Source of the DNA: a virus
Lineage: Duplodnaviria > Caudoviricetes
Length of the DNA: 53,146 nt
IMG/VR virus record: IMGVR_UViG_3300025108_000070
Coordinates: 1 to 53,146 of that record
Reading direction: 5' to 3' (one strand)
Part shown: in pieces, positions 12,395 through 50,502 of the stretch
How the letters are laid out: every line of letters starts with the position of its first letter
How positions within the stretch are numbered: position 1 is the first letter of the stretch
Notes under the pieces: model-generated
What the model was told of the DNA's origin: nothing
Databases searched by the model: none
Seen by the model: the letters and a program-made list of their open reading frames with translations, nothing else
Position numbers and translations under genes: made by a program

Positions 12395-15300
12395 ATGCCT
12401 ACTTTAGAAGAAATACTAAAAAAGCGATTTGAAAGCAATGTAGCTGGTGTTAGTCAAAACACTAGAAATATTGTGCAATCTGATAATACAGCTCAATCTA
12501 ATACAAACCCACAAAATCGTGGAATGAATTTTTATTCTCAATCTCAACCAGCTCAAATAAAAGAAAAATCTATGTATCAAGGTTTAGGTGCAGGTATGTG
12601 GGACTTTACAAGAGAATTTGGTGAAGGTTTATTTGATACAGCTACTTTTGGAGCAGTTAGTGCGCTTTCAGATTGGGAACCAGAAGACGATAAAGTATCT
12701 GAAGCTGCGAAATGGGGTGGAGATATTGGTACCGCAGCTGGTTTCTTAATACCTTTTGGAGCAGGTAAAGCAGCTATTAGTAAAACTGTTCAAGCTGTTT
12801 CTAAAGCTAGTGGTGTAAAAATAGGTAAAAATATTGCAGACGATGTTTTTAAACAAAGTGATGATTTAGGTATTGCCTTTGCTAAGAAAAATCTTGATGA
12901 AGGCGCAAGTGTTGTTGCTGATGATGTTACAAAATTAGGTATTGCTGGAGCTTTTAAAAAACACGTTTTAGATGAAAAATTAATTAAACCTTTAGCTGGT
13001 TTTGATGATGCTTTAGCTGATGCAACAAAACGAAAAGCATTTTGGGAACAAGTTGATGATGAGGGAATGACTATTTTAAGAGAATTTGCTGAAGCAAAAG
13101 GTTTTACTGTTACTGAAAAAGCCGCTAATCAAATAAATAGCATTGTAGTAAATTCAATAGCAAAAGGTGGAGGTAGACCTGTTTCTAATTTAGCTGGGTT
13201 GGTTGCTAAGAAATTAGGAGATGGTAAAAAAGCATCTTTTTATTCTCACATGTTTGAAGAAGCTATGGTTTTTGCAGCAGTTGACAATGTATTGCATGGG
13301 ATAGACGCTGCAGCTGGAGAACACGATTGGGACCCACTTTCTACTACTACTCATGCATTAGCGTTAGGACACGCTTTAGGAGCTGTTAGATTTATACCTG
13401 GTGGTATCAAAGGTGGTACTATGGGTATTTTTAATTTAAAAGGCGTAGACAAAGTAAGAGCAATAATGAAAGGAACTAGCGCTAAAGGATATAATTTAGG
13501 CACAGATGCTGGTCAACAAGCTGTTGGTAGACAATTTAGCGTATTAGGAGGTATAAATAGCACCGAATTAGGGGGAGTAGAATTGAGTAGAATTGTTTCT
13601 AGCTATTTAACAAGAGGTGGAGCAAAACCTGGACAAAAAATTAGTAAACAACATATTGAAAGATTAAGAAAATTAGGTTTAGACGAACCAGACCCAGTAA
13701 GTATTTTGAATAAATTAGATAACGGGACTAAAGAACAAAAAAAAGCGGCAGCTGAGTTAATGAGAGATGTAATACAAAACGTTCACGGACAAGCTAGAAA
13801 TCAATGGAAATCAGAATTTAAAAAAGCATTAAAGCAAGATTGGTTAGGTGGAGGAGAAGCTGGTATAGGTAGTATGCCTCGTATGCTTATTGGTGGAATT
13901 ACTATGGCTGGAGGTCCTGGAATATTTATGGATGAAAATTTAACAATGGGAGATAAAGCTAGAGCGTTGTTAATTGGTGCATTCTTATTAAAACATGGAA
14001 AAGAATTAACTTATAAAGATTACAATACAAAAACTTGGGAAAGATATGAAGGAACTTTTATGGGTGGTCGTAAACCTATGGGTTCTTTTAGTGAAAGATT
14101 TAGAGATGCTGATGTTTTAGTTAGAGCCTTAGGTGGTAAAATGGAAAGCAAAAACAATTTAATGTGGGGTGCTTTGCAGTATCAAGTATATAATGATGCT
14201 AGACATGATAGACACATGAATCAGAATAGTGAAGGATATAGTAATCCTGAAGTTTTAGATGGTCTTAAAAAATTATGGGAATTTAAATCTAATGAAAAAG
14301 CCGATGATATGTTTAGAGTAGATTTAGAATCAGAAACTTCTCAAAGAACAATAGAAAAAAACAAAAGAGGTCCTCAGGTAGAAGGAGAACTTGGTTGGAA
14401 ATTGCTTTATCAAAGAATGGCTACAGACTCTAAATTTGATTCTATAGTAGGAGAAGGAAAAAGACCTAAAGATTGGAGCGAACTTACTGTAGGACAAAAA
14501 AAGGTTTATATAGAAAAAATGAAAGAAATGAATTTTAAGCCTGGTATGAGAGGAATTGTAAAAATGAATAAATTGTATCATTCAGCAAATCATGATTTAT
14601 TCGACCTGGTTAAAAGCAATTTAACAGATAACGTTAAAGAAATTGCTAATATTTTAAATAATGAAGGTAAAGTTCCTGATAAATTATGGGAATTTGATAG
14701 CGAAACAAAAACATATACTTTTAGAAAGATAGAAATTAGTGAAGTAATTGGTAAATTAAACGAAGTGCAACAATGGCAAGTTATTCAATATAACCACATG
14801 ATTAATGCTATAGCAAAACATGGACCGCATAAAATAGCTAAAGAAAAAATTAAATTCAATGACAACACTATGCCAGGTAAAGAAGCTTGGGATAGCTTTG
14901 CTAAAAAAACTATTTTAGCTAAACAACAAAGTAATAAAGATTTTGGTATAGGAAAAGAATCTCAATTTGAATATTCAGATATGTGGTTTCAAAGCGCTTT
15001 TAATTATCATGAATTTTATAGAGTAAATGAAGTTTCTATGAAAGAATTGGATAGATTTGTTGAAAAAAATCCTGAAATAATAGCTCTTTTAAGAACTACT
15101 GGTTCTGATATGGCTGATGCTTCTATTGCTTTAAAAATAAAAATTAAAGAAGCTAAAAACGATAAAAACGAATCAGCAAAAGATATGGAAAGTAATTTAA
15201 ATGATTTCTTGAAAGCTGTAAGGTTGACACAAAGAAGTGCTGGAACCTTTAGTGCTGGAGCAGTAAAAGAACTTACTATGAAAGATGCTAGAAAAATTAT

Positions 15301-18300
15301 GAAATCTTTAGAAAATCATAAAGAACCTATTTTAGCTTTTAAAAATTATAATGATAAATATATGGCTAAACAAAGTAGAGAAGCTGCTTTAAATTCCAAA
15401 AAGAATGAATTATTAGATGAAACTTTAGTTCTAGATAGTGAAGGTAAAAAACAGCCCTTAACTGATGAAGATTTTAGAATAATTGAAATGTTAGAAGCTG
15501 AAAATATTATTTTACCTGGAACATTTACAATAAGAAGTTGGGCTAGAGAACTTTTTGATATTTCAGATGCATTGAGCAAAAAAGGAACTCCATTAGAATT
15601 TAAAGATAACACAGAATTTTTGAAAATATTAAAAGAAAATGGAGCAGATGCAAAAACTATAGAATCTGTAGAAAATTTATTAAAACTTGAATCTTTTGCA
15701 GGCTCTCCAAAAGCTATTCAAGATGTTATAAAAGTATACGAAAATAGTATTAAAAGATATATGCGTAACGAAACTAATGGTACAGGTATTTTAGAAAATT
15801 CACCTGGTGAAAAAATAGCATTAACTGAAATTCAAATTAGAGAATTAGTTGACAATATTAATAATTTAGAAAACGGAGGACAATATACTTCTGAAAAACT
15901 AATGCTAGAAGCGCTCAGAAAAGAATTTTTAGAATCTGGTAGAGATTGGAGTGCTTTTGAAAATGAAGCTAAGGCTAAAAAATACATATTATCAGCTCTT
16001 ACCAGTGGAAATTTAAAAAGTAAAGATGCAGTAGACGTTGTTGCCTTGTCTATGGAATGGGGAATTTATGATTTTTATGGAAGTAAATTTAAAAAACTAA
16101 ACGAGACGCAATGGCAAGGTGTTTTTGAAAAAATGAAAAAAGCTGTTGATACTCAATGGGTAGATTCTGAATCTGTTATACAAAGAAGATATGAAGAGCT
16201 TTTAGACCAAAAAGGAATAGACCCTGGCGAATATAATAAATTAGATATAGAGCAAGTATTAGCAAATAATAAGTTTGATAAATTTGCCGTTCCTAAAGAT
16301 TCTAGATTAAGTCATAAAGCATATATACAAAACAAATTTATGAACGAATATAATTCAGATATAAATAAATTCACTACAGACTTTATGCAAGATTTTATAA
16401 AAAACAATAAAGATTCTAGAGTAACTGATTCTGAAATGGCGAATACTGTAATCAGTTTATTAGCTGAAAACAATAAAAGCATAAGAATTAGAAAATATAA
16501 ATTTAACGCAGAAAGTCCTAATAAAACAACGCACTCAAATGATACTGTTAGAAAAACTCATGTCATAGATAGAATAGAAAGAATGTTTGGTCAAAATGCT
16601 GAAATTGCAATTTTAGAAGGAACAAATGTTACTTTTGGCGGTATGCGTGCAAGTTTGTTTAATACAGATAATAGAATCCAGGTAGGAGATGCTATGTTGT
16701 CTGGACAATATAGAACTCAAAACGAAAAAATGGATTTGTATGGAGATGGATTTGAATTTGGAAATACTTCTTATTTTATGTATCAATATGGCGGAAATAA
16801 ATACGCTTATTTAATTGAAAAAAGTAACTCTTCTATAAAAACTATGACTACAGAATATAAAAATTATTTAAATAGATTAGAAAATGAAGGAGTCATATCT
16901 AAAGAGGAAAAAGCAGAAAGACTAGAAAAAACTGGATTTATTACAGATGGTACAGAAATAACTTACAAAGAAGGAGCAACATCAGAAACCACTAATAATA
17001 ATTTAAAGAAAATGTTAGACGACTATATTTTAGGTGACATATTAGGAGAATCTGCTTGGTGGGGAGGAATACAAAAAAGCAAAGGAAAGGAAGCTGCTAA
17101 AATATTTAAACGATTAAAACTTTTTGATAACATTTCGGCTAAAAGATTTGATACTAAAACAGTTAATGAGCTATCTGATTTTGTTTCTAAGAATCCTGAT
17201 TGGTTTGGAGGAGATAAACAAGTAGGTAAAGATTTAAAAAGGTTTGCTAATGGAGAATGGAAAGAAGTTATTCTTAGAGATGAAGGGGGTAATAATACTT
17301 GGAGTTACGGAGGTCAAGACTTTGGTATAGCCGACATACATTCTGTTATGAAACAAGAAATACAAAACCTTGCAGATAAAATGTCTGAAATAGAAATAGC
17401 TAAAGCAAATAAAAAAATAAATTCAAACGATGCAGATACTTTATTAAATGGTCTACAAATAGAAATTGACAACCTAACAGGAGATATAGCTAGTGGTAAA
17501 TTAGCAGACGCTTCTAATGTTAATGGAATTACATTTGTAAGCGATAGAGCATTTAAAGCATTGCAAGTATTAGCTGGACACACAGACCCTGGTATAGGTG
17601 GAATTAAACCTATAGTTTTACGTACTGGAGAAAATATGTATGTTAATAAAACAGCTTTTGCAAGAAAAAGTGAATTTGCTCAATTATTTGCTAGTAACAA
17701 AGTTGACTTTATAACATTTACTTCAGCTTCTAAAAAAATAGGAGAATATAAAGTTCCAACATATAGCTCTCAACAATTTTTCAATGGATTAAAACCAGAA
17801 GTTGTATTAAAAGGTGGACTTGATGTTCATACAATTAGACCAGAAGATATGCAAATCGTTAGTGTTAAAGCAGCTAAAAATGAAGCTTCAATAGGTATTA
17901 ATCATGCTAACGAACTAACTACAAGTAGAGATAGTTTTATGAATTATGTTTGGGGTAAAGAAGGAGAAAGTAAGTTAGGAGAATTTAGAAACAAAGGTAG
18001 TTTGTGGACAAATCCAAAAAGATGGATAGAGCAAATTTCTCAATTTAAATTATGGAGAAAATCAAAAAGCCAAGAAAAAGGTTCTCAAGAATTAGATAAT
18101 GCTGATTTTGCATTATTGGATATTATGGCTGAAAACAATATTCATCCAGATTTGCTAAGATTTGAAAAAGATAAAATGTGGTTTACAAATGAAGTTGAAC
18201 CCTTATTAAAACCTAAATTACCTGGTGGTCAAGCAGTTTTAGTGCCAGATATAGATATTTCAGGTAAAAAAACATTAAGAGATACTATTTTAGTTGGAGA

Positions 18301-21082
18301 TAGGATTTACGATGCTGGTGAAATATTATTACCAGATAGTGCAAAAAATACTACTATTGATGCAGACAATACAAGTGTTTGGTTAAGAGTGGATGCTGGA
18401 TACGATAAACTTATAAGATTAAGTGAAGTAAAAGGTATGAAAAAGAATTATAGAAAAATACAAACATTGGGCGAATTAGCTGAAGCGTTGCCAGAAAATT
18501 ACCAAGTAAATATAGTTTCAGAAAGACAGCCACATACAAAAACTTCTAGTATTATGCCTGTTGCGTTAAAAGGCTTTAAAGATAGTAGAGATGGTAATAT
18601 TGTAGCATTAAATCAATCGGATTTAAAAAGAGCGGCAGAAGGTGATTTTGACATTGATACAATCAATTATTTTGCAAGTATGCCACACGATGTTATGTTA
18701 GAATACGCAGTAAATAGAGCTAGGGTTAGAGATTCCGTAGACACTATTGGATTAGGTGAAGGAAATAATATGGCAAGTTGGAAAAATTTAGATATGGACA
18801 ATCCAAATAGCCAAATAAATTATTTAAGACAATTAGAAAAAGCTAAGATACAATTAGGAACTACGATGAAATCTCAAACTAATTTAGCTTGGTTTTTAAA
18901 CAATGCAAGTAAAGCAGATTCTCAGTATAGAAGAATAGTAGACCCTATTTATGGTTCTGATGGCGCAGTTATGGGAAGCAATGGACCAGGTGAATCTGTA
19001 GGAGGTATGTTATTAAAATTACCAGAAAATACATATATACACTTTAAAAAAGGTGCAGATATAAATCAAGTATATCAAGAAATTGCTAATATGAATCAAC
19101 ATATTGTAGATATGGACAATGGATTTAATACTGGTGTATTTAAAGATACAAATAGCGTTTATAATAGAATATTCTTTGGAGAAAATGGATTATTTGAAGT
19201 GTATAAAATGTCAGAATTTAAAGTAACTGAAACAATTAATGGGCAAGTTCGTCAAAGAAGCGATAAAATGCTTGTTAAGCAAGATAGTGAAATAGATATT
19301 AAATATAAAGAAGCTATTACAAATCGTTTAATTAGACCTTACACAGAATTGTTAAATGCTTCTCAATATATATTTGATAAAGGTCAACAACAATCTCCTA
19401 GTCTAAATAATTTAATGAGACAAATTAAAGAATATAATAGTAACATGAGACAAGCTGAATATTTAATAGCTAAAGACTTAGGTGTTAAATACGAAAAAGG
19501 AACAATACTTGCAGGGTTTGGAGACAATGCTCAAATTAAATCTAATAGAACAGGAGAAGGTTTTAGTAGAACTAACATGGTATACGATACTTTATTAGCT
19601 CAAATATTACACGTAGGGGAATTAAAACTAAAAAATACTAGAGATAGCATTGTTGATAAAAGTGAGAATTTAGATGGGAGCTTAGATAAGTTTTTAATGA
19701 GTCAAGATATGATGGGAGATTTTAGTAGAAAAATTAAAAAAGATTCTGAAAAATGGGATTATGCAAATGCCTTAGAAAACAAAATTAGAGAATTGAAAAA
19801 ATTAAGAAACAAGACTATGTCTAATTTTACAAAAACTCAACTTTCTGAAAAAATTAAAAATTTAGAAGAATTTAAAGATAATATTAAAGAAGAAATAGAT
19901 ATTGGTCCAGATATCAGGAATCAAATAGTAGAACACAAAATGAAACAAGCTGAATATGAATATTATAAAGATAATCGTAAAGCAATGGATTCAGATACTA
20001 GAAAGAAAAAAAGAAAATTATTTGAAGAACAAGTTAAAAAAGGTAAAAATGTAGTAGAAGAAATAGGTTACGACCATGAAGTTGTAAGAGCTATGGCTTT
20101 AGTAGAAGGTTTTGGTAAATATACTAATATGAGTTTCTCAGAATTGGGAATGGATAGAACTAATTTTGCAGAATTAAGTAAAGCTGCTAGTGCTACAAGA
20201 CGTGATTTTGGTATTGCATGGAGTGCTTTTAGAAACGGAGAAACAGCACAATTAAGTCACCGTGATGGACAAGCTGGCGAAAAAATAGCTTTTGTAAATG
20301 AAGCACATATATATCAATATTTTACTAATAGAATGAGAGAAGAATCTGTAGGTTTTAATACTATGCAAGAACAAAATATTTATATTGCAAAAATTATGAC
20401 TCCTAAAGTAGATTTTACTAGAGTTATTAAATATAAAGACTTATATTTTCCTACTCCAGAATCTAAAAGAATTGAAAAATACATAAAACTTGGATTAAGA
20501 TATAATTCACAATTTTTTGGAAATCAAATGCAACTTAATTTCTTGAAAGGTATGTCTAAGTCTTATGAGATGTCATTACAGTATTTAACTACTGGGCATC
20601 CAAATTCTTTTGAATCTAATTCAATTTTAGGAGAAAGATTAAAACAGTCAAATGAAGGAGGATTTTATTTTGACCCATTTACTTACGCAGCTAATCACGG
20701 TAAAATAGATTTGATAAACGCTTTAAATCCTAATGCAACTGAATATTCTAGATTAAGCGGCTATCATCAAATGCATAAATTGTTTGGTACTGGATTAATT
20801 AAAGATACAGTTAATATGCACGTAATGAATGCAATACCTGTTGGTATGATAGGAAATGTTGGTAGACATTCTAGGGCAATATCTTTAAATGGACAATCTG
20901 ACTTGCAAAAAATGAATGAAATAGATAATAGTGTATTTATAATGAGCGGTAATCGAGGTTCTGTGTTTGATGTTGGTCAACAACTATATAATTTAAACCC
21001 TTACAAATCAGAACGCTCTAAATATTCTCCTAGTGAATGGACTGCTGAAAAAAATAAAGAAAACAATAAATGGTGTGACTAA
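12395..21082 (+). CDS. Giant virion protein with crAss-type single-chain two-barrel RNA polymerase domain
   Basis: EGDFDID (DFDID at 18644-18658) plus ordered NGITFVS, GGIKP, SASKK, GEILLP, ERQP, HIVD motifs. Confidence 0.75.
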   Translation: MPTLEEILKKRFESNVAGVSQNTRNIVQSDNTAQSNTNPQNRGMNFYSQSQPAQIKEKSMYQGLGAGMWDFTREFGEGLFDTATFGAVSALSDWEPEDDKVSEAAKWGGDIGTAAGFLIPFGAGKAAISKTVQAVSKASGVKIGKNIADDVFKQSDDLGIAFAKKNLDEGASVVADDVTKLGIAGAFKKHVLDEKLIKPLAGFDDALADATKRKAFWEQVDDEGMTILREFAEAKGFTVTEKAANQINSIVVNSIAKGGGRPVSNLAGLVAKKLGDGKKASFYSHMFEEAMVFAAVDNVLHGIDAAAGEHDWDPLSTTTHALALGHALGAVRFIPGGIKGGTMGIFNLKGVDKVRAIMKGTSAKGYNLGTDAGQQAVGRQFSVLGGINSTELGGVELSRIVSSYLTRGGAKPGQKISKQHIERLRKLGLDEPDPVSILNKLDNGTKEQKKAAAELMRDVIQNVHGQARNQWKSEFKKALKQDWLGGGEAGIGSMPRMLIGGITMAGGPGIFMDENLTMGDKARALLIGAFLLKHGKELTYKDYNTKTWERYEGTFMGGRKPMGSFSERFRDADVLVRALGGKMESKNNLMWGALQYQVYNDARHDRHMNQNSEGYSNPEVLDGLKKLWEFKSNEKADDMFRVDLESETSQRTIEKNKRGPQVEGELGWKLLYQRMATDSKFDSIVGEGKRPKDWSELTVGQKKVYIEKMKEMNFKPGMRGIVKMNKLYHSANHDLFDLVKSNLTDNVKEIANILNNEGKVPDKLWEFDSETKTYTFRKIEISEVIGKLNEVQQWQVIQYNHMINAIAKHGPHKIAKEKIKFNDNTMPGKEAWDSFAKKTILAKQQSNKDFGIGKESQFEYSDMWFQSAFNYHEFYRVNEVSMKELDRFVEKNPEIIALLRTTGSDMADASIALKIKIKEAKNDKNESAKDMESNLNDFLKAVRLTQRSAGTFSAGAVKELTMKDARKIMKSLENHKEPILAFKNYNDKYMAKQSREAALNSKKNELLDETLVLDSEGKKQPLTDEDFRIIEMLEAENIILPGTFTIRSWARELFDISDALSKKGTPLEFKDNTEFLKILKENGADAKTIESVENLLKLESFAGSPKAIQDVIKVYENSIKRYMRNETNGTGILENSPGEKIALTEIQIRELVDNINNLENGGQYTSEKLMLEALRKEFLESGRDWSAFENEAKAKKYILSALTSGNLKSKDAVDVVALSMEWGIYDFYGSKFKKLNETQWQGVFEKMKKAVDTQWVDSESVIQRRYEELLDQKGIDPGEYNKLDIEQVLANNKFDKFAVPKDSRLSHKAYIQNKFMNEYNSDINKFTTDFMQDFIKNNKDSRVTDSEMANTVISLLAENNKSIRIRKYKFNAESPNKTTHSNDTVRKTHVIDRIERMFGQNAEIAILEGTNVTFGGMRASLFNTDNRIQVGDAMLSGQYRTQNEKMDLYGDGFEFGNTSYFMYQYGGNKYAYLIEKSNSSIKTMTTEYKNYLNRLENEGVISKEEKAERLEKTGFITDGTEITYKEGATSETTNNNLKKMLDDYILGDILGESAWWGGIQKSKGKEAAKIFKRLKLFDNISAKRFDTKTVNELSDFVSKNPDWFGGDKQVGKDLKRFANGEWKEVILRDEGGNNTWSYGGQDFGIADIHSVMKQEIQNLADKMSEIEIAKANKKINSNDADTLLNGLQIEIDNLTGDIASGKLADASNVNGITFVSDRAFKALQVLAGHTDPGIGGIKPIVLRTGENMYVNKTAFARKSEFAQLFASNKVDFITFTSASKKIGEYKVPTYSSQQFFNGLKPEVVLKGGLDVHTIRPEDMQIVSVKAAKNEASIGINHANELTTSRDSFMNYVWGKEGESKLGEFRNKGSLWTNPKRWIEQISQFKLWRKSKSQEKGSQELDNADFALLDIMAENNIHPDLLRFEKDKMWFTNEVEPLLKPKLPGGQAVLVPDIDISGKKTLRDTILVGDRIYDAGEILLPDSAKNTTIDADNTSVWLRVDAGYDKLIRLSEVKGMKKNYRKIQTLGELAEALPENYQVNIVSERQPHTKTSSIMPVALKGFKDSRDGNIVALNQSDLKRAAEGDFDIDTINYFASMPHDVMLEYAVNRARVRDSVDTIGLGEGNNMASWKNLDMDNPNSQINYLRQLEKAKIQLGTTMKSQTNLAWFLNNASKADSQYRRIVDPIYGSDGAVMGSNGPGESVGGMLLKLPENTYIHFKKGADINQVYQEIANMNQHIVDMDNGFNTGVFKDTNSVYNRIFFGENGLFEVYKMSEFKVTETINGQVRQRSDKMLVKQDSEIDIKYKEAITNRLIRPYTELLNASQYIFDKGQQQSPSLNNLMRQIKEYNSNMRQAEYLIAKDLGVKYEKGTILAGFGDNAQIKSNRTGEGFSRTNMVYDTLLAQILHVGELKLKNTRDSIVDKSENLDGSLDKFLMSQDMMGDFSRKIKKDSEKWDYANALENKIRELKKLRNKTMSNFTKTQLSEKIKNLEEFKDNIKEEIDIGPDIRNQIVEHKMKQAEYEYYKDNRKAMDSDTRKKKRKLFEEQVKKGKNVVEEIGYDHEVVRAMALVEGFGKYTNMSFSELGMDRTNFAELSKAASATRRDFGIAWSAFRNGETAQLSHRDGQAGEKIAFVNEAHIYQYFTNRMREESVGFNTMQEQNIYIAKIMTPKVDFTRVIKYKDLYFPTPESKRIEKYIKLGLRYNSQFFGNQMQLNFLKGMSKSYEMSLQYLTTGHPNSFESNSILGERLKQSNEGGFYFDPFTYAANHGKIDLINALNPNATEYSRLSGYHQMHKLFGTGLIKDTVNMHVMNAIPVGMIGNVGRHSRAISLNGQSDLQKMNEIDNSVFIMSGNRGSVFDVGQQLYNLNPYKSERSKYSPSEWTAEKNKENNKWCD

Positions 21083-35493: not shown

Positions 35494-35533
35494 ATCTACC
35501 TCTTTTCTACTTTGGTTTATTATACAAATATTA

Positions 35534-35830
35534 AAATACGTCTATAGTAGGATTACGCATTGGGAAGCTATCCCCCTACAATACCTATATGATACATCTG
35601 CGCGTTTCGCATTTTGTAGGTATCTTGATTGACATAGGTTTGCTCAGTCATTTGACCATTGCCTAACTACTCAGATATACATTAGATATCTAATTGCCTC
35701 AAGGTGGATTATGCATGATGTTACATTGTTATCCACTAATATAGCCGTATTCTAATTCTTTAAATTAAAGGGACAAGACGAGGTAAATGAGATATACTAC
35801 TAACTGATATTAAGTAGAGTCTCGCCCCTT
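35534..35830 (-). ncRNA. Two putative structured RNAs (35534-35752 multibranch; 35768-35830)
   Basis: AATACG/CGTATT closing stem with several inner helices; 12-bp AAGGGGCGAGAC/GUCUUGUCCCUU stem on - strand. Confidence 0.6.
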
Positions 35831-35836
35831 AAATAT

Positions 35837-36028
35837 TTAATCGTGTAATTCTAATAACATTCTTAAAGCTTTGATACGTATTTTTAAATCTTTATCGGTT
35901 ATATTATTAATTAATAACCTACGCATCTTTAAATCACTCATAGATATTCCATAGTATTGTTTATATAGTATTCTATAATCACTAAACAATCTATCTCTAC
36001 GTTCATATCCTAATTCATAATAAGTCAT
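35837..36028 (-). CDS. Hypothetical early protein
   Basis: RBS GAGGT; leader shared with the gene starting at 35493. Confidence 0.6.
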   Translation of the reverse strand: MTYYELGYERRDRLFSDYRILYKQYYGISMSDLKMRRLLINNITDKDLKIRIKALRMLLELHD

Positions 36029-36044
36029 ATTTACCTCTTTTCTA

Positions 36045-36071
36045 TTTATCTAGTTTATCTAATTTATCTAA
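36045..36071. repeat. 3 x 9-bp tandem repeat TTTATCTA(G/A)
   Basis: tttatctag tttatctaa tttatctaa. Confidence 0.8.
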
Positions 36072-36079
36072 TGGCTACA

Positions 36080-36383
36080 CTTATACATTAATGCCTGGAT
36101 TTACATGTTCGATTTGTGCAAATATTTCATTCGTCTTACATCTCCCGTAACTGGACTTAAGCACCCTGTGCTAAATCTAAGACTCTTTACGTTTCAACTA
36201 CTTCACATAGTCTACGAACGCCCATAAGAGGTATAAGCTTCACCTAATTTTAACCAGAATAGATATCCCTTACGGACACTAACGCCCACGTCTGGGAATT
36301 GTGGAAGGCCGCTAAGCCTAAAACCCTATCCTGATTAAACTTTAATTCTCTATTTTCTTTAGCCCTTCAGTTACGAAAGGCTA
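36080..36383 (-). ncRNA. Two putative structured RNAs (36080-36237, 36249-36339) plus hairpin 36360-36383
   Basis: CTTATAC/GTATAAG with nested helices; 14-bp closing stem with two G.U pairs and three inner hairpins. Confidence 0.55.
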
Positions 36384-36391
36384 TGACTCTC

Positions 36392-36553
36392 TTAATAATC
36401 TTTAAGAAAGTGTAGGACTACATCAATCATAGTCCAGGTATCAACATTATCATCTGGGCATAACCCGCTCAAACGATAATACCACATACCATTGCCCTCG
36501 TAGCTTATCCTAAGATAAGGACCACTTAAGGACTTCTCTAATCGTATATACAT
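36392..36553 (-). CDS. Small hypothetical protein (53 aa), not in ORF track
   Basis: RBS GGAGG; MYIRLEKSLSGPYLRISYEGNGMWYYRLSGLCPDDNVDTWTMIDVVLHFLKDY. Confidence 0.5.
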   Translation of the reverse strand: MYIRLEKSLSGPYLRISYEGNGMWYYRLSGLCPDDNVDTWTMIDVVLHFLKDY

Positions 36554-36599
36554 ACATACCTCCATGTAGTTTATAGGTTAAAGTAATTCTAATTCTAGT

Positions 36600-36683
36600 T
36601 TATCCCCATGTTATACACATATCTCTATATATATAGGGTGTTATATCTCTATGTATCTACATTATATCCACATATTATACACA
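36600..36683 (+). promoter_or_regulatory. DnaA-box-like cluster, candidate replication origin
   Basis: TTATCCCCA 36600, TTATACACA 36611, ATATCCACA 36664, TTATACACA 36675, with AT-rich TATA runs. Confidence 0.5.
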
Positions 36684-36723
36684 TATTGCTATGTATTCTA
36701 CTGTAATTAATGGATGGAAGTGT

Positions 36724-36765
36724 AAAAAAGAGTAAGAAAGGGAGTTTCTGTTTCAGGTACTCCCT
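36724..36765 (-). terminator. Rho-independent terminator
   Basis: AGGGAGT/ACTCCCT stem followed on - strand by TTCTTACTCTTTTTT, just after the 36778 stop. Confidence 0.6.
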
Positions 36766-36777
36766 AGACCTAGACGA

Positions 36778-42473: not shown

Positions 42474-44726
42474 ATGGCTAAACGAGGAAGAAAAAATAAA
42501 GCTGACGTAAATAAGCATTTGTTTCAAAAAGCAAATAATTATTTTAGAAAAAAATGGTTTACCGATTCTCAAAAAGGTATGGATTTTTATCTGAACGAAC
42601 AATTATCAGCAGAAGAATTAGAAGATTTAAGAAATGGAGGTATGCCTGATTTTATTATCAATAGAATAACTCCAGCTATTGATATTATGAAATTTTTTAT
42701 TACCGCTAACAATCCTAGATGGCAGGCGATTGGAGTAGAAGGTTCAGACGCTGATATTGCTCACGTACATAGTATGATTGCTGAATATTGTTGGCATTTA
42801 TCAAATGGTAAAAGTTTATTTGGTCAAGTAATACAAGACTCTTTAGTCAAAGGAGTTGGATATTTTAGAGTAGATGTAGACCCTAATGCAGACCAAGGAA
42901 TGGGAGAAGTTATATTTTCTACTATAGACCCTTACGATGTTTATGTAGACCCTCTTAGTAGAGATTTTTTATTTAGAGATGCTAACTATATAATTATACA
43001 AAAAAATCTTTCTAAAAGCTCTTTAATGCAAATGTTGCCTCAATTTAAAACAAAAATATCTAAAGCTTCAGGTTCAACAGAAAGTAAACAATACAGTCTT
43101 AGAGATGTTCATGAATCTGAAACAATATTGCCAGGAGACGTAGAGAATGAAGCGTTTAAATTAGATGGAGAGCAAGATGAAATCTTAGACTATTATGAAG
43201 TTTATAGTAAAGAAAAAATTCCTTTTGTAAATGTTTGGTTAAAACAACCCCCAACAGACCAACAATTAAAAGCTATTCAATCTCAAGCAGAAGAAGAAAT
43301 GCAATCTATGATAGAGGAAATGTCTGTTGGTATAAAAGAAAAAGAATTAGAATTAATGCAATTAGTTAATGAAGGCGAAATGTTGCCAGAAAGAATGCAA
43401 TTAGAATTAGAAAAATTTTCTAAAGAAATGCAAATGAGAATAGAAGAGCAACGAGCTTTAATGGAAGCTCAATTAGTTCAAGCTCAAACCAAAACTGTTC
43501 AAAGTGTAATAGATAAAAGTTCTTTTGATATACAAATGAAATCTGATACATTTGCAGAGTCTGTAGTTGAATATGTAGAATTTTTTAAAACTCAAGTAAA
43601 GGTATGTGCTTCAATTGGAGATATGTATTTATACGAAAGTTTATTGCCTATAGAAGATTATCCAATTATTCCAGTTATGTATACTCATACAAACACTCCT
43701 TACCCAGTGAGCGCCGTAACTCCTATGATTGGTAAACAAAGAGAAATAAATAAAGCGCATCAAATTATGTTACATAATGCTAATCTTGCTAGTAATTTAA
43801 GATGGCTATATACAGAAGGCGCTATTGACGAAGAAGAATGGGAACAATATTCAAGTTCTCCTGGAGCTTTATTAAAATACAGACAAGGATTTGATGTTCC
43901 TAACGCTATACAACCTTTGCCTATTAACAACGCTTTTTATACTGTTACTCAACAAGGTAAAAGCGACATAGAACATATCAGCGGTATTTCATCTAGTATG
44001 CAAGGAGTAGGAGAAGATAGTCACGAAACATATCGTGGTATGTTAGCTATGGATGAATATGGAACGAGAAGAGTAAGACAATGGGTAAATAATGTAGTGG
44101 AACCAGCTTTAGAACAAGTAGGTAGAGTCTTTAAAGAGATAGCTCAATTTACATATACTAGTCAAAAAATATTTAGATTAGTTCAACCAGAAGCTGGTCA
44201 AGGAGAGGGAGAAATTCAAGAAGCTTCTATTAATATTCCTATTTATAATGATTTTGGTGAAGTTATAAAAAGATATAATGATTACAATTCAAGTAAATTT
44301 GATGTTAGGATTGTATCTGGTTCAACTCAGCCAATTAATAGATGGGCTTTGCAAGATGAATATTTTAAATGGTTTCAAGCTGGATTAATAGATGATATAG
44401 CTATGATAGAGCAAACTGATATAAGAAACAAAAAACAATTATTGCAAAGAAAAAGCGTATACTCTCAAATGCAACAACAAATTGCTGGAATGGAAGAGCA
44501 GATGAAAGACCAAGAGGGAACTATAGAAACATTAGAAAGACAATTAGTTCAAGCTGGTATTAAAGATAAAATTAACCAAGCTGAAAAAACGATTGATAGA
44601 CAAGTTACTCAGACCCAAATGGAACAAAGACTTTTAGGCGGTAGAATGAAAGATACCGTTGATTTAGCAAAAAAAGAATTAGCACTAGAAAAGAAAAAAA
44701 TTAGTGTTGATAAACAGAAAAAATAA
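42474..44726 (+). CDS. Portal protein (P22-like)
   Basis: FY..EQ...G.P...INRI.P, G.GY..V, VYVDP, Q.EINK; lies between terL and scaffold. Confidence 0.85.
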   Translation: MAKRGRKNKADVNKHLFQKANNYFRKKWFTDSQKGMDFYLNEQLSAEELEDLRNGGMPDFIINRITPAIDIMKFFITANNPRWQAIGVEGSDADIAHVHSMIAEYCWHLSNGKSLFGQVIQDSLVKGVGYFRVDVDPNADQGMGEVIFSTIDPYDVYVDPLSRDFLFRDANYIIIQKNLSKSSLMQMLPQFKTKISKASGSTESKQYSLRDVHESETILPGDVENEAFKLDGEQDEILDYYEVYSKEKIPFVNVWLKQPPTDQQLKAIQSQAEEEMQSMIEEMSVGIKEKELELMQLVNEGEMLPERMQLELEKFSKEMQMRIEEQRALMEAQLVQAQTKTVQSVIDKSSFDIQMKSDTFAESVVEYVEFFKTQVKVCASIGDMYLYESLLPIEDYPIIPVMYTHTNTPYPVSAVTPMIGKQREINKAHQIMLHNANLASNLRWLYTEGAIDEEEWEQYSSSPGALLKYRQGFDVPNAIQPLPINNAFYTVTQQGKSDIEHISGISSSMQGVGEDSHETYRGMLAMDEYGTRRVRQWVNNVVEPALEQVGRVFKEIAQFTYTSQKIFRLVQPEAGQGEGEIQEASINIPIYNDFGEVIKRYNDYNSSKFDVRIVSGSTQPINRWALQDEYFKWFQAGLIDDIAMIEQTDIRNKKQLLQRKSVYSQMQQQIAGMEEQMKDQEGTIETLERQLVQAGIKDKINQAEKTIDRQVTQTQMEQRLLGGRMKDTVDLAKKELALEKKKISVDKQKK

Positions 44727-44738
44727 CTGTAAATTAGA
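44707..44738 (+). promoter_or_regulatory. Putative late promoter, copy 2
   Basis: TTGATA-17-TAAATT with TAACTGTAAATTAGA. Confidence 0.65.
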
Positions 44739-44752
44739 AGGAGAAATACAGT

Positions 44753-45622
44753 ATGAGTGAAATAACACAGGATAACCTACTTATGGATGATGCCGAAAGA
44801 GCAGAACAACAAGTAGCCCCTATAGAGCAAGATACTGTGGCTGAAGATTTTTTTTCTCAGCTTGATAAACAAGTTATGGGTGATGTTATATCCCAGCCAA
44901 TAGAAGAAGCTCAAGAACAACAGATAACTTCCCCTGAAGGGAACCCTGAAGTCGAGCAACAATCTACTCAAGAAGTAGATAATTTAGAAAAGAGATATAG
45001 TGATTCATCTCGTGAAGCTAAAAGACTTAACAGTCAATTACAAGAGATTGAACCTTATATGCCTTTACTAAATGCAATGAAAGAAGACCCGAATTTAATT
45101 AATCATGTGAGAGATTATTTTCAGGGTGGTGGCTCAGCACCCGAAAGTGTGAAAGAGCGCCTTGGCTTAGACGAAGATTTTGTTTTTGATTATGACGAAG
45201 CTTTGTCAGACCCTAAATCTTCATCTGCAAAATTGTTTAATGCAACTGTGGATGGAGTAGTGCAACGAAGATTAGGTGATTTTGCTCAACAACAATCTAT
45301 ACAATCACGTAAAGCTTTAGAAGAAAGTGCTTTTAAAGATAAGTACAAAGTTTCTAATGAAGATTACTCTGATTTAATGGATTATGCAAAATCGCATAAA
45401 CTAACATTAGAAGATGTTTATTATTTGAAAAATAGAGATAACCGTGATGCTCAAGTAGCTGAAGGTGCTCGACAAGAAATAGTACAACAAATGAAAAATG
45501 TTAGAACTATGCCACCTAGCGTTGCTTCGGCTGGGAACGAACAAAGAGATGAACAATCAGTAGACGATGCCGTTTTTGACAAGCTGCTATCACAAGGTGC
45601 AGGGCTAGATGAGTTAATGTAA
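44753..45622 (+). CDS. Capsid scaffolding protein
   Basis: Acidic N-terminus, coiled coil KRYSDSSREAKRL; between portal and capsid. Confidence 0.7.
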   Translation: MSEITQDNLLMDDAERAEQQVAPIEQDTVAEDFFSQLDKQVMGDVISQPIEEAQEQQITSPEGNPEVEQQSTQEVDNLEKRYSDSSREAKRLNSQLQEIEPYMPLLNAMKEDPNLINHVRDYFQGGGSAPESVKERLGLDEDFVFDYDEALSDPKSSSAKLFNATVDGVVQRRLGDFAQQQSIQSRKALEESAFKDKYKVSNEDYSDLMDYAKSHKLTLEDVYYLKNRDNRDAQVAEGARQEIVQQMKNVRTMPPSVASAGNEQRDEQSVDDAVFDKLLSQGAGLDELM

Positions 45623-45648
45623 ATAAAACAAACCCTTAGGAGGGAAAC

Positions 45649-47205
45649 ATGCCTAGTACACCTTTAGCATTGTCGACTTCTACTGGTTTACTTAACAGAG
45701 GGAGAGAAGTTGGTGGAGTTAATCCAACAACAGCATACCCTACTGGTGATTTACGTAGACGTTATGACTTTGGTGATAGATTTTCAGAACTTGCCATAGC
45801 TCAAACACCGTTCTTTAGACTTGTTTCTACAATGGCTAAAAAACCTACGGATGACCCAACTTTTAAGTTTACCGAGAAGAGACATTCATTCATGAAGCGT
45901 TATGTATATATCGTTGGAAGTATTAAATCTGCTTCAACCGATGTATTTGCAGACGCAACCCTAGCACAAGCAGCAAACACTTCAGCACCCGTTGTTGGAA
46001 GTGAAGTAAAGCTTTATGCAGGAACAGACTATTACTCAGCTGGAAACATTCAAAATGTTCAAGGCCAAAGTAATGGACAAATTAAAGTAGGAGTTGATGG
46101 TACAAGACCACAATTTCTACAACCTAATCAAATCCTTAAAGTACCTATGACTGACGCAGCTGGAAATGCAGTTAACGATTATATGTTAGTTCGCATTACA
46201 GCAGTAGCAGACGCAGCAGACAAAGACCTTAGTGGAGCTGGCGGTGCATCCGCTTCTAAACTATCTCTAATTACTGGTAAAGTTCTTAGAATGTCTAGTG
46301 GAGCTGAATTAGCATCTTTCTTAGCTAACAATAAACCTGACGTAGAAGTATACGCAGAAGATATTGCTGAAGCATTAGAAGGAAAACGTTCATATGTTGT
46401 TGGTACATCATATGGAGAAGGTTCTGAATTACTTGGACAATCTTGGAAAGATAACCCATACTCAACTGGTTACGGACAAACTCAAATCTTTAGAGGCGAG
46501 TTTGGTATGACTAATACTGCAAGAGCAACAGCTCTAAAGTATGAACCAAATGAGTGGGCTAGAACATGGAAAGAAAAACTTATTGAACACAAATGGGACA
46601 TTGAATGGGCTGGATTATTTAGTTCACAAGTTGCAGATGGTTCAGTTAACCACACTCAAGGTGCAATTGATTACATCTTGAATTTTGGTAATATCTTTAC
46701 ATTAGACCTAGCTACAAAAAGTATTGATGACTTCTTACAAGATATGTCACAATATTTTGACCCTAGATACAATCAAGACGGAGCAACAGTATTCTTATGT
46801 AGTACTGCTGTGTTTACTTGGTTGCATAAACTAGGTGGGTTCTTTAAGAATAACATTGCTATTGGCGATAATGGTAATAACTTTAATCGCTTTGGAGCAG
46901 ACTTAGCCGTTACTGGTAGAAAGAAAGTAATGGGATTAGACGTAACAGAAATACAAACAGTATACGGTAAAATGAACGTAGCTAGATGTATTGCCTTAGA
47001 TGGTTCACACGTTAAAATCGCTGCTATCAACATGAACAATGTTGCTTACAGACCACTAGTTGGTAATGGAGTTAATAGAGATACCTCAATTTACGTAGGA
47101 GTTAAGAATTTAGAAAACTCAGGTACGGATAAGAGAGTCGATATGATTCTAACTGAAGCTGGTTTCGAATATAAGATGCCAGAATCACACGCTATTTGGA
47201 AATAA
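45649..47205 (+). CDS. Major capsid protein
   Basis: TPFF.L, F.F.E, TQIF, EHK.DIE, TVYG...V, TEAG.E...PE.HA; synteny; C-ending codon bias of a highly expressed gene. Confidence 0.85.
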   Translation: MPSTPLALSTSTGLLNRGREVGGVNPTTAYPTGDLRRRYDFGDRFSELAIAQTPFFRLVSTMAKKPTDDPTFKFTEKRHSFMKRYVYIVGSIKSASTDVFADATLAQAANTSAPVVGSEVKLYAGTDYYSAGNIQNVQGQSNGQIKVGVDGTRPQFLQPNQILKVPMTDAAGNAVNDYMLVRITAVADAADKDLSGAGGASASKLSLITGKVLRMSSGAELASFLANNKPDVEVYAEDIAEALEGKRSYVVGTSYGEGSELLGQSWKDNPYSTGYGQTQIFRGEFGMTNTARATALKYEPNEWARTWKEKLIEHKWDIEWAGLFSSQVADGSVNHTQGAIDYILNFGNIFTLDLATKSIDDFLQDMSQYFDPRYNQDGATVFLCSTAVFTWLHKLGGFFKNNIAIGDNGNNFNRFGADLAVTGRKKVMGLDVTEIQTVYGKMNVARCIALDGSHVKIAAINMNNVAYRPLVGNGVNRDTSIYVGVKNLENSGTDKRVDMILTEAGFEYKMPESHAIWK

Positions 47206-47220
47206 TCTAAATAGTTAATT

Positions 47221-47277
47221 TGCATTGGGTCCTTGTAGGTTCTTTACCTCCTTTCTCCCTACGGGGACCTTAATGCA
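47221..47277 (+). ncRNA. Hairpin RNA element with anti-Shine-Dalgarno loop
   Basis: 6+13 bp stem (G.U on + strand); loop TTCTTTACCTCCTTTCTC. Confidence 0.65.
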
Positions 47278-47291
47278 TACGGAGAATAGAT

Positions 47292-49061
47292 ATGAAATTA
47301 TGGGAAAAAGTAAATAATATAACTGGTAACGATACCAAGGCTAGATATTTAGTAGAGTATATCAATGCTGGAGCTAAATTTATAGTAGCATCATTACCTG
47401 AAAAGTTTTTATGGACTATTGCTTCTGAAGTAGAAGTTACAGGTTGGAATAGTGCTGGTACTGACATTTTAGGAAACGGTTCTTCATTAGCGTATGATAA
47501 AATATTAGCAGTTTATCGTTTAGATAGTGGGAAAAAAAGAGTAGCTGTTGAAGCTCCTGATAATAGTATACATATATTTGACGAAGCTGATAGTTTGTTA
47601 ACGGCTACTGAAATGTTTCCAAAATACTATAAACTAAGTGGTAAAATTTATATTAAACCAGACCCTGATTATAATTCTTCAGGAGCAAATAAAACATATA
47701 CACCATTAGGGGGCAGTTCTACAACTGTTAATGCTGGTACTGGAGATAAAGGAGTGATTGTTTATTCAGCTCCCCCAATAATTGATGAAAATACAGATGA
47801 TTGGATTCTTACAGAATATGAAAATATTGCTATACTATATGCTTCTTCTTTAGATTATATGAGATTAGCACAATATTATAGAGGATTATGTAAAACAGAA
47901 ATAGATAAAATATTTAACACGACTATAGAATCTTTTTCTAGTGAATTGCCTAGTTCTACTCCTATATTTAATTTTAGCGATAGTGTTCCTTCTGGATTTA
48001 GCATAACAAGCACTTTGCCAAGTTTTAATTTTGCTGGAATTTTACCAACTAACATTAGCTTAACAAATTCTTTGCCTAGTTCTATAAATGTAACAAGTTC
48101 TTTACCTAGCGGATTAGTTTTAAGTAAATCGCTAGAAGATGACTATAACACATTAACTTCTTTACCTTCATACGATTCTGAATCTTTAGTTTTAAATTTA
48201 AGTAATTCTTTTGGAGATATAAATAATGCTGAATCAATACTAGAAAGCGGTTTTACTTCAGGAGATACTAGCGCCAAAGTAAGTAAATCAGCTATACATT
48301 GGTTGCAAGACGAAGACCCAGAAATGGCAAAAGCTACAACTGAAATTACTGAAATGGAATTAGGTATAGCAAAAGGAAGGTTGGATGTTGAAAGAACTAA
48401 CATAGAATCGTTTGCTCAAAAAGTAAATCAAAATACTAGTGTTTTTAATAGCAATTTAACTAAATATGCACAAGAATCTAGAACTGAATCTGAAAGAATA
48501 TCTTCTGGAGTAGCTAATTATCAAGCTGAAATACAAAAAGAAACACAAAGAATTAATTCTGATTTAGCTAAGTATACTAATGAATTACAAAAAGAAGTAC
48601 AAAGAATACAAACAGATATTTCTAAATATCAATCTGAGCTACAAAAAGAATCAGCAAATAAAAATATTGATACACAAAATTTTTCAGCAAAATTAAATGA
48701 AGCAATGCAAAGATTTCAATCAGATATTGCTAAATATCAATCTGAAATACAAAAAGAAGGTCAAAGAGTTCAAATAGATTTACAAAATTATTCGGCTAAA
48801 TTAAATGAAGCTAATATTAGATACCAAGCAGATTCTAATGTTTTTCAATTAAAAATTGCTAAAGCTAACACTAAATTACAAGAATCTGGTATTAGATTAA
48901 ATACAGCTAGTGCTTATACTCAAAAAAGTAGAGATAGCATTCAAACATCTCAATTATTTTTTCAAAGAGCTATAGGTGAATTACAAGCAATTACTGGCGC
49001 TATAGTAGCTCCTGAACAACAACAACAATCTCAAAGAAGAGAGCAAGGAGCAACATCGTGA
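47292..49061 (+). CDS. Structural protein with S/T-LP repeats and long coiled coil
   Basis: Follows capsid gene; ~11-aa ..S.LP repeats, then 18-aa YQ.E.QKE.QR...D..K repeats. Confidence 0.6.
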   Translation: MKLWEKVNNITGNDTKARYLVEYINAGAKFIVASLPEKFLWTIASEVEVTGWNSAGTDILGNGSSLAYDKILAVYRLDSGKKRVAVEAPDNSIHIFDEADSLLTATEMFPKYYKLSGKIYIKPDPDYNSSGANKTYTPLGGSSTTVNAGTGDKGVIVYSAPPIIDENTDDWILTEYENIAILYASSLDYMRLAQYYRGLCKTEIDKIFNTTIESFSSELPSSTPIFNFSDSVPSGFSITSTLPSFNFAGILPTNISLTNSLPSSINVTSSLPSGLVLSKSLEDDYNTLTSLPSYDSESLVLNLSNSFGDINNAESILESGFTSGDTSAKVSKSAIHWLQDEDPEMAKATTEITEMELGIAKGRLDVERTNIESFAQKVNQNTSVFNSNLTKYAQESRTESERISSGVANYQAEIQKETQRINSDLAKYTNELQKEVQRIQTDISKYQSELQKESANKNIDTQNFSAKLNEAMQRFQSDIAKYQSEIQKEGQRVQIDLQNYSAKLNEANIRYQADSNVFQLKIAKANTKLQESGIRLNTASAYTQKSRDSIQTSQLFFQRAIGELQAITGAIVAPEQQQQSQRREQGATS

Positions 49062-49336
49062 AGCTTTTAGAATTAATGGAAAGAGCAAATACTAGAGATA
49101 CAAAATTAGTCATTGCTTACGTTAAAGACGCAATAAACAAAATACAATCATCAAATGAAATTACTACAACAAGCGCTAAACAAAATATAGTTAAAAATCA
49201 AAGAGATTATAATTTGCCTGCTGATTTAATTGCAATTAAACATATTAGTGTTTTAGATACCGAAGATGATAATAAGTATAAAATTATTAGAAGATTAGCA
49301 AACGAACCTGTAGTTAGCGAGGATACAAACCCATGA
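49058..49336 (+). CDS. Neck/adaptor-like protein
   Basis: QR.Y.LP.D...I..I motif; synteny. Confidence 0.5.
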   Translation: MKLLELMERANTRDTKLVIAYVKDAINKIQSSNEITTTSAKQNIVKNQRDYNLPADLIAIKHISVLDTEDDNKYKIIRRLANEPVVSEDTNP

Positions 49337-49794
49337 GTTATGACACAGATAGAACTTATGCTTATATACAAAGCGGAAAAAAATTAAGACTTTATAAAAT
49401 TAGAAGAAGTTCTGGTAGAATTATTGATAATCAAGGTAGAGTCAAAGGCGGAGAATTTGATGATATTATATATCCAGATGAAGCAATTACTTTAGGATTA
49501 AGAGTAGAATATACAGCTATAGTAGACCCTTTTGTAGCTGAAGACCCTGAAACTACTTCAGTAGGTAGTTTAACTACAGTATCTTCTCCAATTGAATCTA
49601 CTCATATAAATTTAAATAGAATGTTAAGTCTAGCAGTTGTAGATTATGTACGTGCTATGATGGCTGAAAGACAAGGAGATATACAGGCAAAAGAGTATTA
49701 TTTAAGAGAATTTCATAAAAAGGTTGCTGACAATGAAAGCAACAGAAACAAAATGTATATCGCAAATACGATAAAAACGTATGCGGTAAAATAG
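49333..49794 (+). CDS. Neck/adaptor-like protein
   Basis: L.VEY...AVVDYV.A....G.....YY..EF; synteny. Confidence 0.5.
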   Translation: MSYDTDRTYAYIQSGKKLRLYKIRRSSGRIIDNQGRVKGGEFDDIIYPDEAITLGLRVEYTAIVDPFVAEDPETTSVGSLTTVSSPIESTHINLNRMLSLAVVDYVRAMMAERQGDIQAKEYYLREFHKKVADNESNRNKMYIANTIKTYAVK

Positions 49795-49803
49795 GGGAAT
49801 ATA

Positions 49804-50244
49804 ATGGCAAGAATAGATTATGCAACAAGCGTATCAGTAATACAAAGTACTACATTAGAAGGAAATACAGTAGAAGCTATTGATGCTGAAATTGGTAGAA
49901 GTTTAGGTGGAGGAAACTCTAGTTTAACTTGGGCTGGTTCAAATATTGATGCTTGGGCTGGTGGAGTTATGACACATATAGAAGCAACTACCACTCCAAC
50001 TCAAGTAGCGGCTAGTGGAGATGATGGTGTTTGGATAAAACACACGGGCTTAGAACATGTAACTGCAGCTCCTCATTTAGGTACGGCTGCTAATAATGAC
50101 GCTGTAACTATAAAATTAGCTTCAGCAAGTCTTTGCACACTAAATAGCGGAGATTGTATTTTTATACCAAAACCTTTGGGAGCTATTAATGTAGTAGGAG
50201 CAGATAATACTGGTCCAGCAATTGAATACGCAAAATTAACTTAA
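49804..50244 (+). CDS. Hypothetical structural protein
   Basis: Operon ORF, beta-rich. Confidence 0.6.
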   Translation: MARIDYATSVSVIQSTTLEGNTVEAIDAEIGRSLGGGNSSLTWAGSNIDAWAGGVMTHIEATTTPTQVAASGDDGVWIKHTGLEHVTAAPHLGTAANNDAVTIKLASASLCTLNSGDCIFIPKPLGAINVVGADNTGPAIEYAKLT

Positions 50245-50256
50245 CAGGAGAATAAA

Positions 50257-50493
50257 ATGGCAAAAGGACTTAATGATTACGCAGTACAAGAAAGTGTTGC
50301 TCCGTATATCAAAGCAGTAGTTGCAACGGGAAGTGACCAAGACGCTTGTAGAGCTGTGCACATGAAGGGCACATCAGCAAACGTTAATTTAACAGTAAAT
50401 GGTGTTGTAGTAGCATTTCATTTGTTAAAAGGACACACATATCCAATTTGTGCAACAAAAAGTAGTTCAACAGACGTAGTACTTTTATATTAG
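50257..50493 (+). CDS. Hypothetical structural protein
   Basis: RBS AGGAG. Confidence 0.6.
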   Translation: MAKGLNDYAVQESVAPYIKAVVATGSDQDACRAVHMKGTSANVNLTVNGVVVAFHLLKGHTYPICATKSSSTDVVLLY

Positions 50494-50502
50494 GAGTATA
50501 TA

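Follow-up and report, generated by a model that had tools for sequence, protein, structure and literature searches.

In T7-like phages a strong hairpin lies after the major capsid gene (the T-phi terminator, RNase III sites), where it lowers tail-gene expression, leaves the message with a protective hairpin at its 3' end, or does both. T-phi, which serves the phage polymerase, includes a U-run, and the T7 loops are not sequence-invariant. A different set of bacterial RNAs presents anti-Shine-Dalgarno (anti-SD) motifs in exposed loops or untranslated regions. Per the excerpt of PMC4615179, the cuckoo or alpha-r14 RNAs of Alphaproteobacteria (CcsR, NfeR1) have loops with an invariant anti-SD-like motif on stems that are free to vary. 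In the icaR mRNA of Staphylococcus aureus, as the excerpted account in PMC3868564 has it, the motif UCCCCUG in the 3' UTR pairs with the Shine-Dalgarno (SD) sequence, blocks initiation and makes an RNase III substrate. Several Gram-positive small RNAs with C-rich loops, namely 6C (PMC6486639), RsaA (PMC3961350), LhrC (PMC4132741) and IsrR (PMC9410917), are described in the excerpted parts of those reports as binding the SD regions of several mRNAs without long complementarity.

The hairpin analysed here lies in a window of 53,146 nt, meaning the whole stretch of DNA under study, which is the entire source record of a whole virus (estimated 99% complete, 32% G+C). No tRNA genes were found in the 53,146-nt genome, and no phage RNA polymerase was recognised among its annotated ORFs. 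SD 4-mers precede 35 of its 52 ORFs, as compared with 11% of random 17-mers, and the host therefore reads SD sequences. Cultured or prophage relatives were found neither in the phage collection, by DNA or protein, nor in genome contigs, by capsid protein. The hairpin (47221-47277, plus strand; 19 pairs, one bulged base and an 18-nt loop) sits in the 3' untranslated stretch of the capsid gene, upstream of which are portal and scaffold-sized genes. The features of this region are the following.

45649..47205, plus strand: major capsid protein gene, 518 aa (ORF; phrog_1328; Pfam PF17236 SU10_MCP, E 1.6e-17)
47203..47220, plus strand: capsid stop codon and 15-nt spacer, with all three frames closed before the hairpin (codon listing)
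47221..47239, plus strand: 5' arm of the hairpin (fold and covariation)
47240..47257, plus strand: apical loop, 18 nt, pyrimidine-rich (fold; unpaired in the folds of 39/39 relatives)
47247..47256, plus strand: loop decamer CCUCCUUUCU, the 3' end of many 16S rRNAs (relatives' loops; excerpted Table 1 of PMC6288834)
47258..47277, plus strand: 3' arm of the hairpin, with one bulged base and no U-run after it (fold, terminator scan, relatives)
47281..47284, plus strand: GGAG Shine-Dalgarno sequence of the next gene, 3 nt past the stem and 7 nt ahead of the ATG at 47292 (sequence)
47292..49061, plus strand: next gene, 589 aa, N-terminal ~200 aa adaptor-like and C-terminal part variable (features, fold search, conservation)

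Both the letters and an RNA fold bear out the interrupted 19-bp stem and the 18-nt loop with an 11-mer at 47246-47256 that a first-pass annotation had reported. Folding of 47200-47300 returned the hairpin with an MFE of -29.4 kcal/mol, compared with -18.6 +/- 3.3 kcal/mol for shuffled sequences (z = -3.3), none of which was as good (0/200). Purines are nearly absent from the loop. The identity of the loop with the 16S tail, also claimed in the first-pass annotation, applies to the last ten letters of the 11-mer (47247-47256): in the excerpted Table 1 of PMC6288834, the 16S tails of several bacteria read GAUCA and then a decamer identical to that of the hairpin loop. The preceding 16S letters (GAUCA) are not copied in the hairpin loops of relatives. 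A single exact copy of the loop 14-mer exists in the 53,146-nt genome, whose sole strong anti-SD-loop hairpin is the present one; six other candidates are weak and intragenic, and none is comparable.

The next gene is likely, per comparisons of features and predicted structure, to encode a head-to-tail adaptor. Its N-terminal ~200 aa are conserved among relatives and the remainder is variable. Pfam gave no match for the gene or for its N-terminus, and the Atlas features of the N-terminus reach 0.96 to clusters carrying PF24175 (SU10_adaptor). An AlphaFold2 model of the N-terminus has moderate confidence (pLDDT 67), and its best nine Foldseek matches are chains of podophage portal-tail complexes, for example 8zkk_B (2.9e-4) and 7z47_B of SU10 (4.2e-4), with TM scores of only 0.28-0.36. 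Other features of the genome were observed in passing. An ORF of 2895 aa (12395-21082, plus strand) lies amid the tail and virion genes and has no PHROG or Pfam match; its product may be an ejected internal virion protein. By eye, the capsid leader (45619-45648) and the leaders of relatives appear to form a small hairpin with the SD in the loop and the 3' stem, and the stem letters of this putative hairpin vary between lineages. A hairpin with a U-run, likewise found by eye, stands at the end of the late block.

Relatives were gathered by capsid protein alone in two scans of viral contigs (46 + 80 = 126 loci), from which 38 duplicates, 5 loci too short past the stop and 5 with cut capsid genes were removed to leave 78 distinct regions. 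The hairpin was scored as present where CCUCC was unpaired in a loop at most 110 nt from the capsid stop. On this definition 39/78 distinct regions carry it, comprising 39/39 of those with a capsid identity of at least 57% and 0/39 of those at 56% or below. Because an independent classification recovers the same 39, the motif filter lost no ingroup locus. In regions with capsid identity of 56% or below, the capsid gene is succeeded either immediately by the next gene or by a hairpin that bears a U-run. Ordinary terminators follow the capsid gene in the outgroup loci L038, L041 and L158, and their loops share another short motif.

The loop sequence CCUCCUUU is unchanged in 39/39 hairpin-bearing relatives, and their stems have been rewritten with compensating changes. 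The first 8 letters of the decamer are the same in 39/39 distinct relatives, the ninth in 38/39 and the tenth in 37/39; rare loop variants occur in L027/L140 and L146. The base preceding the core varies (26 A, 5 U, 4 C, 4 G). These relatives have 14 distinct loops as compared with 25 distinct upper 5' arms. The capsid family is represented by ~1800 stored stretches in IMG/VR, as estimated from the second scan, and about half of the distinct regions sampled from it carry the hairpin. A search with the loop 22-mer retrieved 69 stretches, with an adaptor-like gene downstream in 69/69 and the capsid gene upstream in 66/69, the other 3 being cut by the contig end.

In genome contigs the loop 22-mer had two matches, L117 and L116. 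The L117 match was rejected, as it has no hairpin and resembles an SD leader on the opposite strand. The other match (L116:2940-3030, minus strand of the locus), on the contig of an Acidobacteria MAG, has the same 22 letters (loop and closing pairs) on a quite different stem. It lies in a prophage-like region with an HNH nuclease, an ECF sigma factor and HTH genes, and a second hairpin, also with CCUCC in its loop, follows directly; both hairpins have the same orientation as the genes around them. The 9.4-Mb genome has one copy of this element, and a search of 40 relatives of that genome found none.

Covariation was assessed on 28 distinct, well-aligned hairpins. As 11 of the 28 had been found by the loop 22-mer pattern, which makes them fair for stem tests and not for loop tests, judgements on the loop are free of this bias only in the 39-sequence set. 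Across the 28 hairpins 91.1% of cells are paired, and 13 of the 19 pairs have changed on both sides. A survey of relatives for an invariant loop on a covarying stem had been suggested in the first-pass annotation, and both are strongly evident: the loop core is constant in 39/39, and the covariation score is 0.482 as compared with 0.305 +/- 0.016 for shuffles (0/500 reach it) and with 0.09-0.19 when the partners are slid by 1-3 columns. Given this invariant loop core and covarying stem, the hairpin is a genuine RNA element under strong selection, with an exposed anti-SD sequence.

Because a MAFFT alignment of the 39 hairpins misaligns the divergent stems (RNAalifold on this alignment gives 10 pairs only), per-sequence folds and a covariance model built on the 28 hairpins were used. 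The model scores the window at 88.4 bits on the plus strand versus 14.9 bits on the minus strand, and G-U pairs account for 143 of the 793 pairs predicted in the 39 relatives. The many G-U pairs and the strand-specific model score together indicate that the structure is selected in the sense (plus-strand) RNA. The model also recovers divergent lineages, misses L027 and L146 at E <=1, and detects one outgroup hairpin (L178, E 0.0014), which lies after the second gene and before a weak adaptor match. The basal stem is separable in many lineages. A symmetric, G/A-rich 3x3 internal loop stands between the basal and the upper stem in L031, L133, L138, L142-L148, L168 and L172, and has been lost in the window's own lineage.

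Among the 39 relatives, the hairpin starts at a median of 12 nt (0-16) past the capsid stop, a figure that weak outer pairs make rough. An SD 4-mer of the next gene was found in 35/39 and lies at a median of 1 nt past the hairpin end (again rough, with two mis-picked starts). In L168 the loop is kept although the next gene has no visible SD. Two loci, L145 and L027, have an extra gene after the hairpin, whose stop overlaps the adaptor start, and L178 has an extra gene ahead of the hairpin; from these positions, the element marks the end of the capsid-protein block and not one fixed neighbour. Pfam searches of the inserted genes of L145 and L178 found nothing. The extra gene of L145 (3176-3735) and L027 (4584-5060) encodes ~155-185 aa rich in Ala, Gly, Thr and Val, without a family match, and its product may be a capsid-surface protein.

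RNA data were available as assembled contigs of marine RNA libraries, among which those from close relatives cover the scaffold and capsid genes. Contigs from two studies end 11 and 25 nt past the capsid stop, and a third runs through the hairpin. The contig that stops at 25 nt ends inside the 5' arm; in the one that stops at 11 nt, the letters after the end look like sequencing adapter. The contig ends hint at most weakly at an RNA end near the hairpin. No RNA contig covers the next gene at a likeness of at least 85%, which for assembled contigs is uninformative either way.

Our preferred reading, to which we attach about as much belief as doubt, is that the hairpin is an anti-SD loop on the capsid mRNA, comparable to cuckoo/CcsR, RsaE, 6C, RsaA and icaR, whose stem serves as mRNA end or processing barrier. 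The conserved structured RNA would ride on the sense (late, plus-strand) transcript of the capsid operon, and its long stem would keep the pyrimidine-rich loop open and so present the 16S anti-SD decamer. We infer that this loop pairs with purine-rich SD leaders, by which 30S subunits would be kept off; its partners would be the SD of the adjacent gene, on other molecules or after partial opening of the stem, and other strong leaders. Because the decamer is frozen even beside 4-mer SDs, many partners, or a partner that recognises the tail, are favoured over one local co-evolving partner. Occlusion of SD sequences, as the first-pass annotation had also proposed, would be the most economical reading. 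A further probable role of the stem is to bound or shield the capsid message: it would mark the 3' boundary of a heavily used message, as an exonuclease barrier or double-strand processing site, at a point where expression would step down, the capsid subunits numbering hundreds and those of the adaptor about a dozen.

Several considerations weigh against SD occlusion. No target is conserved, the best sites differing among five complete genomes, and the phage's own late genes, capsid included, would be hit too because they have strong SDs. A weak SD alone would also be sufficient to lower adaptor synthesis, which we count against the loop reading. A bolder proposal, possible but unlikely, is that the capsid message mimics the docking tail of the ribosome, either as the dominant late RNA competing for SDs or by soaking up a host factor or defence nuclease that targets the 16S tail. 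In small marine cells with few ribosomes, the loop could then compete with 16S rRNA and re-rank the messages that are translated; in either form, the decamer would be frozen as the 16S tail is, having to fit many partners. If the loop does act on ribosome-binding sites, widespread ocean phages would regulate translation via a copy of the ribosome's docking sequence in the capsid message, which would amount to phage control of protein synthesis without any protein.

The hairpin could be purely a device of the mRNA end (an exonuclease barrier, an RNase III-type site or a factor-dependent attenuator), with the loop kept for a reason other than SD pairing, such as binding of S1 or another pyrimidine-binding protein; we consider this unlikely. 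It would suit the location at the step in expression between capsid and adaptor, the ordinary terminators of distant relatives at the same place, the retention of the hairpin after the capsid gene despite the gene inserted before the adaptor in L145 and L027, and, weakly, the RNA-library contigs that end nearby. RNase III sites of phage T7 have a stem of about two helical turns into which an internal loop is often set, and the stems here have 17-20 pairs, with the 3x3 internal loop in many lineages and only one bulge in the window. A barrier or double-stranded site, however, needs no invariant loop core of 8-10 nt, pyrimidine-tract binders have no exact-sequence requirement, and the chance that a frozen core would equal the 16S tail is small. 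Termination fits poorly as well, given an 18-nt loop and the lack of a U-run in all 39 relatives. A canonical intrinsic terminator is in fact ruled out: at least 5 T in the 8 nt past the hairpin occur in 0/39 relatives, and the loops are too large, measuring 14-19 nt in 38/39 folds as compared with ~3-8 nt, on a G+C-rich stem, for intrinsic terminators, although the stem itself is stable. A terminator scan of 44500-50500 listed none at 47221-47277.

The hairpin also does not have the makings of a stand-alone transcription unit, in that it begins ~12 nt past the capsid stop, is adjoined by the next SD and is followed by no U-run; no promoter-like site is listed in the 12-15 nt ahead of the stem. 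Rfam gave no match at gathering score for the whole genome, and near the hairpin its only matches were three to unrelated families, at the level of chance (E 2-5).

The first-pass annotation had also raised tuning of the downstream GGAG in cis, which the geometry of this genome hinders, as that SD begins 3 nt past a stem of 19 pairs. A compact pseudoknot between loop and SD with the full stem intact is ruled out on geometric reasoning, a 3-nt linker being unable to span 19 folded pairs. From A-form geometry, we infer that the adjacent SD cannot reach the loop in this genome unless ~7 basal pairs open. In a purely local switch with an opened basal stem, the loop would form a pseudoknot with the next gene's SD. 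Ribosomes that finish at the capsid stop might do the opening, and capsid translation would thereby restrain that of the adaptor. The arrangement of the locus agrees with such a switch, in that the SD adjoins the hairpin (median 1 nt), the median distance of 12 nt from the stop places the hairpin where the edge of a ribosome would be as it terminates, 35/39 have an SD 4-mer, all three frames of the window stop before the stem, and many lineages have a separable basal stem. Nevertheless, we find a switch acting only in cis distinctly unlikely: opening the basal pairs costs about what 4-6 loop-SD pairs yield, the whole decamer is conserved when only 4-6 of its letters are able to pair, and L168 retains the loop without an SD.

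Toxins that cut the anti-SD region exist, and the loop might be a decoy of the 16S 3' tail that titrates a protein late in infection, such as a tail-cutting toxin or defence nuclease, or a ribosomal protein or initiation factor that binds the tail. The frozen part continues past CCUCC as it does in the 16S tails of the excerpted PMC6288834, which exceeds what 4-mer SDs need, and the loop is displayed single-stranded on a stable stem. We think a decoy quite doubtful, as the annotated ORFs of the genome (many of them without assignment) include no candidate partner protein and the letters ahead of the core, GAUCA in 16S, are not copied.

The pairing of the loop with two early leaders was a specific proposal of the first-pass annotation, which had pointed to a 13/14 match before 36028 and a similar one before 35493. 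The two leaders are the following.

36029..36043, minus strand: leader of the 63-aa early-region gene that starts at 36028, complementary to the loop at 13/14 positions (-14.4 kcal/mol)
35494..35508, minus strand: leader of the 172-aa early-region gene that starts at 35493, complementary to the loop at 12/14 positions (-14.5 kcal/mol)

The complementarity is as described: 36030-36043 differs from the reverse complement of the loop 14-mer by 1 mismatch and 35495-35508 by 2, and each site directly precedes a minus-strand start. Genome-wide, sites with at most 3 mismatches are not enriched (17, with 11.7 expected; 6/100 shuffles reach 17). The best predicted loop-leader duplexes among the 52 leaders are those of 39611 (-16.7 kcal/mol), 2202 (-14.6 kcal/mol), 35493 and 36028; since the last two rank third and fourth, the early leaders are good partners but not unique ones. 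Long gene-free stretches (35494-35836 and 36029-36777, minus strand) with near-identical leaders lie before 35493 and 36028; they resemble a duplicated promoter-leader cassette, and the second stretch is ~750 nt long.

That the loop silences these two early genes, and host messages, late in infection by covering their extended SD leaders appears improbable to us. Both duplexes do lie beyond the first percentile for random sites (-13.0 kcal/mol), and three of five complete relatives have a related leader, within 3 mismatches, at a matching place. The targets are nevertheless not conserved: the other two relatives have no leader within 3 mismatches, differences between relatives in the leader parts that pair outside the SD core are uncompensated in the invariant loop, and the best predicted sites vary from genome to genome. 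In addition, two late-strand leaders rank ahead of the early ones, and most of the complementarity is the SD itself.

Readings in which the element is not an RNA (chance, a recoding signal, a site on the DNA or a ribosome-binding site of the minus strand) are very improbable. The loop does give a perfect strong SD when read as its reverse complement, and 47225 is the start of a 44-aa ORF on the minus strand; the ATG of that ORF, however, stands 21 nt away from the SD core and relatives do not keep it, which rules out a ribosome-binding site for it. A frameshift or readthrough stimulator is ruled out by a stop in each frame between 47203 and 47220, the G-U pairs and the strand-specific model score indicate plus-strand RNA, and chance is opposed by conservation in 39/39.

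A full-text literature search found no description of an anti-SD loop after a phage capsid gene. We compared the hairpin with the systems introduced above. Unlike the hairpins of T7-like phages, it has no U-run, and no phage polymerase was recognised among the annotated ORFs of its genome. With icaR, per the excerpt of that report, it shares the placement of an anti-SD motif in the untranslated 3' region of a protein-coding mRNA; there the partner is the SD of the same mRNA, whereas here the SD of the capsid gene would be one among many possible partners, and the two are not homologous. The capsid leader is predicted to form six pairs with the loop (-10.7 kcal/mol), which many other leaders equal or exceed, and the capsid gene is unlikely to be repressed by its own loop. 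The 6C, RsaA, LhrC and IsrR RNAs, as their excerpted reports describe them, have shorter motifs (UCCC or C-runs) with no full copy of the 16S tail and are encoded by stand-alone chromosomal genes. The cuckoo RNAs, in the excerpt of their report, resemble the phage hairpin in a conserved anti-SD loop motif on variable stems; they are separate small-RNA genes with 2-4 adjacent hairpins and the loop motif CCUCCUCCC, whereas the phage element is a single hairpin in the capsid operon with another loop sequence, without a promoter or terminator of its own and without an Rfam family. The phage hairpin nevertheless shares with the class of anti-SD or C-rich-loop RNAs an exposed and conserved anti-SD loop on stems that vary, and it represents a known functional kind, the anti-SD loop, in a new setting, with SD pairing as a plausible candidate mechanism.
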